Shown here: positions 19,212 through 19,391 of the stretch, in pieces
How positions within the stretch are numbered: position 1 is the first letter of the stretch
Layout: each line of letters opens with the position of its first letter
Source of the DNA: a virus
DNA: 37,673 nucleotides
Virus record (IMG/VR): IMGVR_UViG_3300045963_000083
Coordinates: 1 to 37,673 of that record
Direction: 5' to 3' (one strand)
Notes under the pieces: model-generated
Seen by the model: only the letters and a program-made list of their open reading frames with translations
The model's database searches: none
Told to the model about the DNA's origin: nothing
Position numbers and translations under genes: made by a program

Positions 19212-19391
19212 TTAAGACCAAGAGAAAGACCTAGATTTAGACCCAGACCCAGACACAGACCTAGACCCAGACCAAGCCCAAGACCAAGGCCCAGACCAAG
19301 AGAAAGACCTAGATTTAGACCCAGACCCAGACACAGACCTAGACCCAGAAATATACCTAGACTTATATTGAATTTTTCTTGTATTTATCAT
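19212..19391 (-). CDS. Candidate 59-aa Ser-X dipeptide-repeat peptide (MINTRKIQYKSRYISGSRSVSGSGSKSRSFSWSGPWSWAWSGSRSVSGSGSKSRSFSWS)
   Basis: Hand-translated, one residue under the track cut-off. Its ATG overlaps the upstream TGA as ATGA. Its TAA falls immediately after the last repeat unit. Co-oriented with all neighbours. The frame is ambiguous because a repeat keeps several frames open. Confidence 0.4.
   Translation of the reverse strand: MINTRKIQYKSRYISGSRSVSGSGSKSRSFSWSGPWSWAWSGSRSVSGSGSKSRSFSWS
19215..19364. repeat. Phased hexanucleotide array (AGACCN)x25 with a 78-bp higher-order tandem duplication
   Basis: 25 contiguous 6-bp units. 19215-19271 is identical to 19293-19349 (13-unit period). 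Confidence 0.95.

Follow-up and report, generated by a model that had tools for sequence, protein, structure and literature searches.

A phased hexanucleotide array in a phage genome as a probable Ser-X repeat mini-gene coupled to a gene for a predicted Sm-like protein

We examined a hexanucleotide repeat array in a viral genome of 37,673 nucleotides (IMG/VR record IMGVR_UViG_3300045963_000083, analysed over its whole length and referred to here as the window) and found that it very probably forms most of a translated gene, which shares a cassette with a gene for a predicted Sm-like protein (Table 1). The putative gene is a 59-codon open reading frame (ORF) on the minus strand, in which a short leader is followed by residues that alternate with serine (X-Ser, hereafter SX). 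An initial annotation of the window had described a hidden minus-strand Ser-X ORF with an ATGA-coupled start and no family placement, and had set against it an Arg-Pro repeat frame on the opposite strand. The first of these proposals is backed by the comparative data and the null family scans reported below.

Recounting the array from the sequence gave the 25 gapless, in-phase 6-bp units originally described. On the plus strand, AGACCN occurs 15 times, AGAGAA, AGATTT and AGACAC twice each, and AGCCCA, AGGCCC, AGAAAT, ATACCT and AGACTT once each, the ten units other than AGACCN being single or double variants. The 78-bp (13-unit) tandem duplication was also recovered, with 57 bp repeated exactly (Table 1), and this repeat at a 78-bp offset is a recent in-frame block duplication. 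A three-unit pattern (AGACCNAGACCNAGACC, up to two mismatches allowed) matched the window 18 times, every time within the array, compared with 0.02 matches in shuffled sequences, and the array was also picked up by TRF and by a repeat finder. Of the six frames, four run through it without a stop, so the frame is undecidable from the window alone.

The minus-strand ORF is present in the ORF list as a 59-amino-acid (aa) frame beginning with ATG. As first described, its start shares ATGA with the TGA of the adjacent 90-aa gene, its TAA sits immediately past the final repeat unit, and its product is strongly basic. All 22 serine codons are TCT, as had been reported, but the serine phase has three exceptions (Tyr, Pro and Ala) and not two. 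The same coupling had been said to occur at well over a dozen other junctions in this genome, whereas among the larger ORFs we counted 10 start/stop overlaps of four bases and 4 of a single base. Compared with the family described below, Lys (AAA/AAG) in part replaces Arg and Phe (TTC) in part replaces Trp in the window array, and two Val residues also occur; the window copy is a somewhat diverged family member, in which the K-for-R and F-for-W exchanges preserve chemical class and lose the GG dinucleotide. The peptide has no signal peptide or hydrophobic segment. Neither it nor the Arg-Pro ORF, both of which the initial annotation had marked for family searches, matched Pfam or PHROGs, and the same two collections gave no other domain in the SX ORF. 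A protein database search with the 59-aa peptide returned nothing at E ≤ 1e-3, because of low-complexity correction; exact look-up of the SX and 90-aa proteins of the window found no record, and a search for near-identical DNA with positions 17-22 kb of the window found no match among GenBank phages.

Relatives were collected with the adjacent 90-aa protein as the anchor, which introduces no bias toward any array pattern, and the loci retrieved comprised 19 on viral contigs, 1 on a metagenome-assembled genome contig, 1 in a GenBank record and 80 in metagenomes. The metagenome-assembled genome carries the label Patescibacteria. An SX-type mini-ORF, defined as a short leader followed by alternating X-Ser, lay directly 3' of the 90-aa homologue in 63 of the 72 loci with at least 150 nt of downstream sequence; most loci with shorter flanks stop inside or ahead of the array. 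A control set gathered with the single-strand annealing protein as the anchor, 80 loci of related phages totalling 741 kb, contained no SX array. Among 77 distinct SX ORFs, the start codon was ATG in 62, GTG in 14 and TTG in 1. An ATGA overlap with the partner's stop codon was seen in 40, while the others begin 0-38 nt downstream, with one at 81 nt, and a Shine-Dalgarno-like motif was found in 9 of the 13 that have a gap of at least 6 nt. The SX frame is open in all 77, with a stop within a few codons of the array end, so that a proposed check on conservation of the start and stop came out in favour of the ORF: relatives retain start, frame and post-array stop without exception.

Codon usage decides which frame is read. 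The dominant serine codon per array was TCG in 29 cases, TCT in 28, AGC in 9, TCA in 9, AGT in 1 and TCC in 1 (77 arrays). Single arrays are largely uniform for one serine codon and the choice differs among lineages, although older arrays mix codons (for example TCG, TCT and TCA in one ORF of MW202825.1). Because coding for serine is all that TCN and AGY have in common, conservation acts at the amino-acid level and in the minus-strand frame of the window. The leader tells a similar story, in that the class M-x-N-T-[KR]-[KR]-x-Q-[YW], which includes the MINTRKIQY of the window, was found in 14 distinct DNA versions whose codon differences were 253 synonymous and 261 non-synonymous, with Arg spelled AGA, AGG, CGA, CGT and CGC, that is, by both AGR and CGN. 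The initial annotation had asked in which frame substitutions are synonymous; with six serine codons in use and about half of the leader changes silent, the answer is the Ser-X frame. The SX ORF therefore shows the marks of protein-coding sequence, namely a conserved start, frame and stop, synonymous changes, and insertions and deletions that preserve the frame.

The reading on the opposite strand fared differently. The TTG-initiated ORF of Arg-Pro type does exist in the ORF list and, as noted originally, runs antisense to the neighbouring minus-strand gene, extending 109 nt into what is a conserved gene. It had been likened to proline-rich antimicrobial peptides, and the frame is open in the window, with variation at the third base of CCN that would be expected of a Pro codon. 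Across the family, however, the opposite frame reads Arg-Pro solely with TCT or TCG arrays; other arrays give Ala-Pro, Thr-Pro or TGA-Pro in its place, and stop codons close the frame in 21 of the 77 related arrays, which leads us to reject the Arg-Pro peptide. The features adduced in its favour did not withstand scrutiny either: GGAGGG (19199-19204) overlaps or follows the TTG start and so offers no upstream Shine-Dalgarno site, the two promoter-like sites reported upstream are at chance level (5 found in the region against 5.5 expected), and the degenerate base taken for a Pro wobble position is the first base of NGG codons, where changes interconvert Trp, Arg and Gly. The likeness to proline-rich antimicrobial peptides thus ends with the (Arg-Pro)n reading of the window, since the plus-strand ORF is unconserved, contains stops in relatives, begins only with TTG, and has no credible start or signal peptide and no Pfam or PHROGs match. 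We consider a functional Arg-Pro peptide from this ORF extremely improbable, and we conclude from the sequence comparisons that the minus-strand SX ORF is a real phage gene and the Arg-Pro frame is not.

Array length changes rapidly among close relatives. In six peat-metagenome contigs whose partner genes show no difference across their final 240 nt, the SX ORFs have 22, 26, 46, 50, 54 and 58 codons, and a second near-identical pair (L407 and L411) differs by 78 nt, the block size of the internal duplication in the window. All 16 length differences among near-identical pairs were multiples of 6, as the initial annotation had suggested should be checked, including the one 78-nt step. In-frame differences between contigs with identical flanks imply that the arrays turn over fast enough to differ between strains, through slippage of units and duplication of blocks. 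A diversity-generating retroelement was considered as a source of the variable first base and set aside, given that unit insertions and deletions plus exact block duplication suffice; general family scans of the ORFs found no reverse transcriptase, and no search was aimed at one.

The composition of the arrays, by contrast with their length and order, is tightly held. Gly (37.5%), Trp (29.3%) and Arg (27.2%) together make up 94% of X residues across the family, their order is near random (WW and RR at 0.86 and 0.80 of expectation, respectively), and the variance of X composition per array does not exceed the binomial expectation. Only one of 62 arrays lacks Trp and only one of 62 lacks Arg. 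Concerted evolution would often be expected to yield pure (GS)n, (WS)n or (RS)n arrays, and their absence argues that the Gly/Trp/Arg mixture is selected. From these sequence patterns we conclude that selection holds the frame, the serine at alternate positions and the Gly/Trp/Arg mix while length and order shift quickly.

A more puzzling aspect of the arrays is that X is written almost exclusively as NGG. Array Gly is GGG in 555 of 571 cases (97%) and array Arg is AGG or CGG in 395 of 415 (95%), while in the window genome GGG accounts for 9% of Gly codons and AGG for 14% of Arg codons. The account we favour is that only NGG units could regain Trp by one first-base change after a sweep: Trp has the single codon TGG, single first-base changes in NGG interconvert Trp, Arg and Gly, and the alternatives NGA and NGY would lead to a stop and to Cys, respectively. 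Within arrays, third-base variants are about as frequent at X (3.7%) as at Ser (4.6%, p = 0.30), so the NGG bias acts between lineages, where the serine codon has been replaced array-wide and the third base of X never has.

The near-exclusive NGG could instead mark a constraint at the RNA or DNA level, such as binding by the Sm protein or G-quadruplex formation, and this weighs against a purely protein-level account. Taken further, the functional entity would be the nucleic acid itself, a (GGNNNN)n RNA or DNA platform or sponge for the Sm-like protein, an array of two-tetrad G-quadruplexes, or a protein-binding or spacer array, with the ORF incidental or merely kept open. GG is the sole dinucleotide invariant across all arrays, the codons in question (GGG, AGG and CGG) are the rarest synonymous ones in the window genome, the neighbouring gene has an RNA-binding family fold, and the window array RNA folds better than shuffled sequences (z = -3.15). 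The fold, however, rests on GGUCU self-pairing, which AGC-type arrays do not have, and Rfam covariance models run over the whole window gave no match at the gathering threshold. Conservation of a motif also leaves unexplained why the remainder of each unit is invariably a serine codon, TCN or AGY, why the leader is conserved at the amino-acid level, and why starts and stops are kept in 77 of 77 ORFs with every insertion or deletion in frame. In the window, AAA, AAG and TTC in place of NGG retain the residue class and not GG, and the similar third-base variation at X and Ser likewise speaks against a nucleic-acid signal. Serine-codon switching implies that a GG role at the RNA or DNA level is not the whole explanation, and we regard a nucleic-acid entity as quite improbable.

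A further alternative, marginally less probable still, is that the act of translation matters and not the product, with rare NGG plus Ser and Trp codons slowing ribosomes in an attenuator-like manner and thereby affecting mRNA stability, termination at a hairpin or expression of the next cassette. The array codons are indeed rare in the window genome, translation of the ORF is coupled to that of the gene before it, and a terminator-like hairpin lies 18 nt past its stop (Table 1). The downstream context is nevertheless unconserved, as many relatives abut another gene and others lack a hairpin; the serine codon, and with it the tRNA isoacceptor, varies by lineage; and a pure codon-speed device would need neither the conserved Gly/Trp/Arg mix nor the leader.

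We then considered the product together with its neighbour. The 90-aa partner (fam90) was modelled with AlphaFold2 at a mean predicted local distance difference test score (pLDDT) of 80.6 and a predicted template modelling score of 0.69, and the top 50 Foldseek matches of this model in the PDB were Sm/LSm chains only (best 4m75_D, E 5e-4, target-normalised TM 0.80). The family comprises 627 proteins at 90% clustering, or 470 clusters at 50% identity. Pattern scans of viral contigs with (GGTCTN)6 and (GGAGCN)6, each of which returned at least 120 loci, extended the association: an Sm-like gene lies immediately upstream in 48 of 73 assessable TCT-type SX clusters, belonging to fam90 in 18 and to a second family, fam2, in 30. 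The fam2 proteins are about 110 aa long (at least 930 members at 90% clustering), are related to fam90 by hhalign (probability 88%, E 2.9e-6), and were likewise predicted to adopt an Sm/LSm fold (pLDDT 92, Foldseek matches). The Sm fold, an N-terminal helix and then a strongly bent five-stranded beta-sheet, is predicted for both families. Neither family matched Pfam or PHROGs, and LSM and Hfq Pfam profiles gave no match to fam90 even at E ≤ 1, so that the likeness lies at the level of the fold alone. Three fam90-type proteins (P0247, P0267 and P0330) carry two tandem Sm-like domains in one polypeptide, which is compatible with ring oligomers and no proof of them. Among the 80 annealing-protein-anchored loci, the viral contig L039 gave the sole Sm-like match (fam2), with no SX array detected; the partner gene may lack an array there, or the locus edge may account for the absence.

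GenBank phages with partner families were limited to two Manatee Spring records. In MW202825.1 (L341, 3001-3604), the record annotates neither the Sm-like gene nor the first of its two tandem SX ORFs, and lists the second as a 'hypothetical protein' (UOF82383.1). In MW202573.1 (L422, 1314-1780), the SX ORF UOF78858.1 (MNAAIIRAGLDASWSWSWSWSRSRS...) has a fam2 Sm-like gene just before it, the two overlapping as ATGA. A conserved third gene of the cassette was sought and none was found; the remaining neighbours are a mosaic of phage replication and recombination genes, with no enzyme family conserved among them. The leader, moreover, follows the partner: the first 10 residues contain 3.45 K/R on average with fam90 and 0.75 with fam2, the fam2-linked leaders being non-basic and of the MNQAILRAGFD type.

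These features led us to a model of how the pair might work. The strict period-2 alternation, together with a constraint on X that concerns composition only, suggests an extended or disordered polymer. Such a peptide would be multivalent, with Arg and Trp as 'stickers' and Ser and Gly as 'spacers', its alternate side chains contributing Arg charge, Trp stacking and Gly spacing. Such a residue make-up is typical of low-complexity tails that bind nucleic acids and of the Arg-aromatic sequences whose sticker/spacer rules are well known from disordered RNA-binding proteins. It may bind RNA or single-stranded nucleic acid jointly with the Sm-like protein, acting as a basic low-complexity tail in trans where many Sm, LSm and Hfq proteins would carry theirs in cis; SmD1, SmD3 and LSm4 bear RG or RGG tails, and Acinetobacter Hfq bears Gly-rich repeats. 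The leader would be the element that docks on the Sm-like partner, and the outcome would be altered handling of RNA or single-stranded DNA early in infection. An SX gene with an Sm-linked tail mechanism is the best overall explanation we can offer, at somewhat less than even confidence, and the specific mechanism of a nucleic-acid-binding tail associated with the Sm protein is put forward a little more tentatively.

Several observations weigh against this model. No Sm-like::SX fusion occurred among 178 Sm-like ORFs and long database matches, so a physical complex gains no support from gene fusion. The correlation between leader and partner could reflect shared ancestry and not docking. As a small beta-barrel, the Sm fold is common, and its uses extend to peptide binding or roles outside RNA. 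No Sm-like gene lies directly upstream in 25 of the 73 SX clusters, and some phages hold 3-8 tandem SX paralogues, so that the SX peptide may act alone. Array lengths, finally, come from short-read metagenome assemblies, in which tandem repeats may collapse or expand. Production of a fused protein by programmed -1 frameshifting at A-AAA-TGA was also considered and rejected, as the slippery context is unconserved, many relatives have a gap at this point and no fused proteins were found. The multicopy loci (L102, L121, L174, L193, L168 and L150) hold 3-8 tandem SX mini-ORFs, some without an Sm-like gene directly upstream, and each paralogue has its own conserved leader, such as MITKRTKWRR, MRYLFEGS or MVTKRTKYRS.

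The unpartnered clusters and tandem paralogues are also what would be expected if the SX peptide were real and independent of the Sm-like protein, serving as a host-directed effector, a reading we consider unlikely. It could be a decoy or inhibitor of a host defence protein or enzyme, for example an 'Ago hook' mimic with Trp in a Gly/Ser context that binds Argonaute, a poly-Ser decoy for a Ser-modifying kinase or toxin, or a membrane-active Arg/Trp peptide such as a Kil-type host-killing protein or exclusion factor, and an arms race would on this reading lie behind the fast variation in length and order. Prokaryotic Argonautes protect their hosts from phages, plant viral suppressors imitate the GW/WG repeats that serve as Argonaute hooks, and Arg/Trp-rich peptides are classic membrane- and nucleic-acid-active molecules. 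Strains that are otherwise identical differ in the array, and the gene lies in an early operon, the usual home of host-takeover and anti-defence genes. The link to Sm-like genes, however, is both strong and specific (63/72 and 48/73, against none in the 741-kb control), the leader class follows the partner family, and composition is tightly conserved and not diversifying. The peptide also has no hydrophobic segment or signal peptide, and our literature search turned up nothing that connects Trp repeats with prokaryotic Argonautes.

Among the known systems closest to an SX peptide paired with an Sm-like protein are eukaryotic Sm/LSm proteins that carry RG/RGG tails (SmD1, SmD3, SmB and LSm4), which likewise combine an Sm-fold core with a basic low-complexity dipeptide repeat. 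These tails are thought to contact RNA or partners, but they are fused to the Sm domain, consist of Gly-Arg, are methylated and show no Trp/Ser alternation, whereas the phage repeat is a separate coupled ORF, with no fusion found and a putative interaction with the Sm-like protein. The RS domains of SR splicing factors also resemble the arrays in having alternating X-Ser that includes Arg, in being disordered and RNA-associated, and in their variable length. In the phage arrays, by contrast, Arg-Ser is not dominant, as Arg makes up only about 27% of X with Gly and Trp as equal partners; there is no RNA-recognition domain, the setting is a bacterial virus, and no kinase was evident among its genes in general family scans. 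Hfq offers a bacterial Sm-like ring with a repetitive low-complexity tail; in Acinetobacter and Moraxella its C-terminal repeats are Gly-rich, and its disordered C-terminal domain modulates nucleic-acid binding. That tail, however, is covalent and has no Ser alternation or Trp/Arg grammar, and fam90 has no sequence match to Hfq (Pfam, E = 1). The GW/WG 'Ago-hook' proteins (GW182/TNRC6, and P38 of turnip crinkle virus) share a disordered repeat with several Trp residues next to Gly or Ser, which viruses exploit against a host nucleic-acid defence protein, but this is eukaryotic biology and the phage arrays are Arg-rich with strict Ser alternation. Nor does the cassette look like a precursor of a ribosomally synthesised and post-translationally modified peptide, as the conserved neighbour is an Sm-like protein and not an enzyme family, and the leader has only about 9 residues. 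A literature search covering dipeptide and hexanucleotide repeats, Sm-like phage proteins, DUF6948 and small ORFs returned no description of the two-gene cassette, and the only related work was a 2025 paper on early proteins of T4-like phages with predicted LSm-like folds (GoF, MotB.1 and Frd.2), which are suspected of affecting RNA stability (PMC12152347). Its abstract mentions no repeat mini-gene (PMC12152347), and the family described here matches neither Pfam nor PHROGs. With no curated family for either gene and no description found in the literature, we place the cassette outside known kinds of system, with a putative function.

Table 1. Coordinates and properties of features at the SX locus (positions in the window)
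Feature	Position	Strand	Details
SX mini-gene	19212..19391	-	59 codons plus TAA; MINTRKIQY then (X-Ser)n; isoelectric point (pI) 12, net charge about +9.5
N-terminal leader, M-I-N-T-R-K-I-Q-Y	19365..19391	-	Basic; start overlaps partner TGA as ATGA
Hexamer array	19215..19364	-	25 units; NGG-TCT on coding strand, AGACCN on plus strand; encodes (X-Ser)25
Exact 57-bp repeat, copy 1	19215..19271	.	Same as 19293-19349
Exact 57-bp repeat, copy 2	19293..19349	.	Same as 19215-19271
Partner gene (fam90)	19388..19660	-	90 aa; predicted Sm/LSm-like fold
Antisense TTG ORF, Arg-Pro frame	19197..19496	+	99 aa; judged a non-gene
Terminator-like hairpin	19165..19193	-	GGCATGACTAGATTATGCC then GTTTTTTGAA; from consensus scan; begins 18 nt past SX stop

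The window genome appears to be organised in lambdoid style, with an O-like replication initiator, a DnaB-like helicase and NinB on the plus strand, together with portal and terminase genes; the nearest cultured relatives of the portal protein are in Brucella phages, at 26% identity. The leftward early operon includes the gene for a single-strand annealing protein (early recombination) and has the SX ORF as its last gene, and the hairpin beyond it, which has a T-run, is likely to be the operon's end. Other 'terminator' matches in 19227-19328 were dismissed as artefacts of GGUCU self-pairing within the array. Beyond this terminator lies a separate minus-strand cassette (16276-19080) of three proteins with signal-peptide-like N-termini, a 590-aa S8 subtilase (PF00082) and two proteins of 166 and 157 aa without a family match, which looks like a phage-carried accessory (moron) cassette. 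Two other repeats were seen within genes. A second perfect hexanucleotide repeat, (ACAGAT) x5.5 at 25644-25676, lies in the O-like initiator gene (25250..25981, plus strand) and translates as H-(Thr-Asp)x5-N, with a 12-bp direct repeat (TAACAGATGTTA, two copies) just 5' of it; the repeats of this region (25593-25676) may be a linker, origin iterons or both. Within a 290-aa early gene (19982..20854, minus strand), a 15-bp tandem repeat of 2.5 copies (20294-20330) encodes EAERLEAERLE in a charged, coiled-coil-like stretch.

What appeared to be a microsatellite thus becomes a conserved gene family, with partner families of at least 627 and at least 930 members at 90% clustering, whose SX gene is often missed by annotation pipelines or called 'hypothetical'. 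It offers an unusually clear natural example of protein-level selection on a tandem DNA repeat, in which six serine codons are used and the alternate position is restricted to NGG, and it brings together, in bacterial viruses, an Sm-like protein and a low-complexity peptide of Arg, Trp, Ser and Gly. In the broadest reading, which we offer as a speculation with a minority chance of being right, phages of uncultured freshwater, groundwater and peat bacteria may carry an unrecognised system of an Sm-like protein plus a hypervariable (Gly/Trp/Arg-Ser)n peptide, encoded by a hexanucleotide array that expands itself and whose NGG codons would belong to the design by letting Trp, Arg and Gly interconvert; the pair would work as a multivalent RNA-binding or condensate machine or as an anti-defence device reprogramming host RNA handling. 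Such a system would amount to a split-gene version, in viruses, of the Sm proteins that bear RG or RS tails. Should the SX peptide be an anti-defence decoy, it would point to a new host target. Should the two products instead work on RNA or build condensates, phages would join the organisms with 'sticker-spacer' disordered proteins and Sm tails, and the cassette would provide a small, easily synthesised test system.

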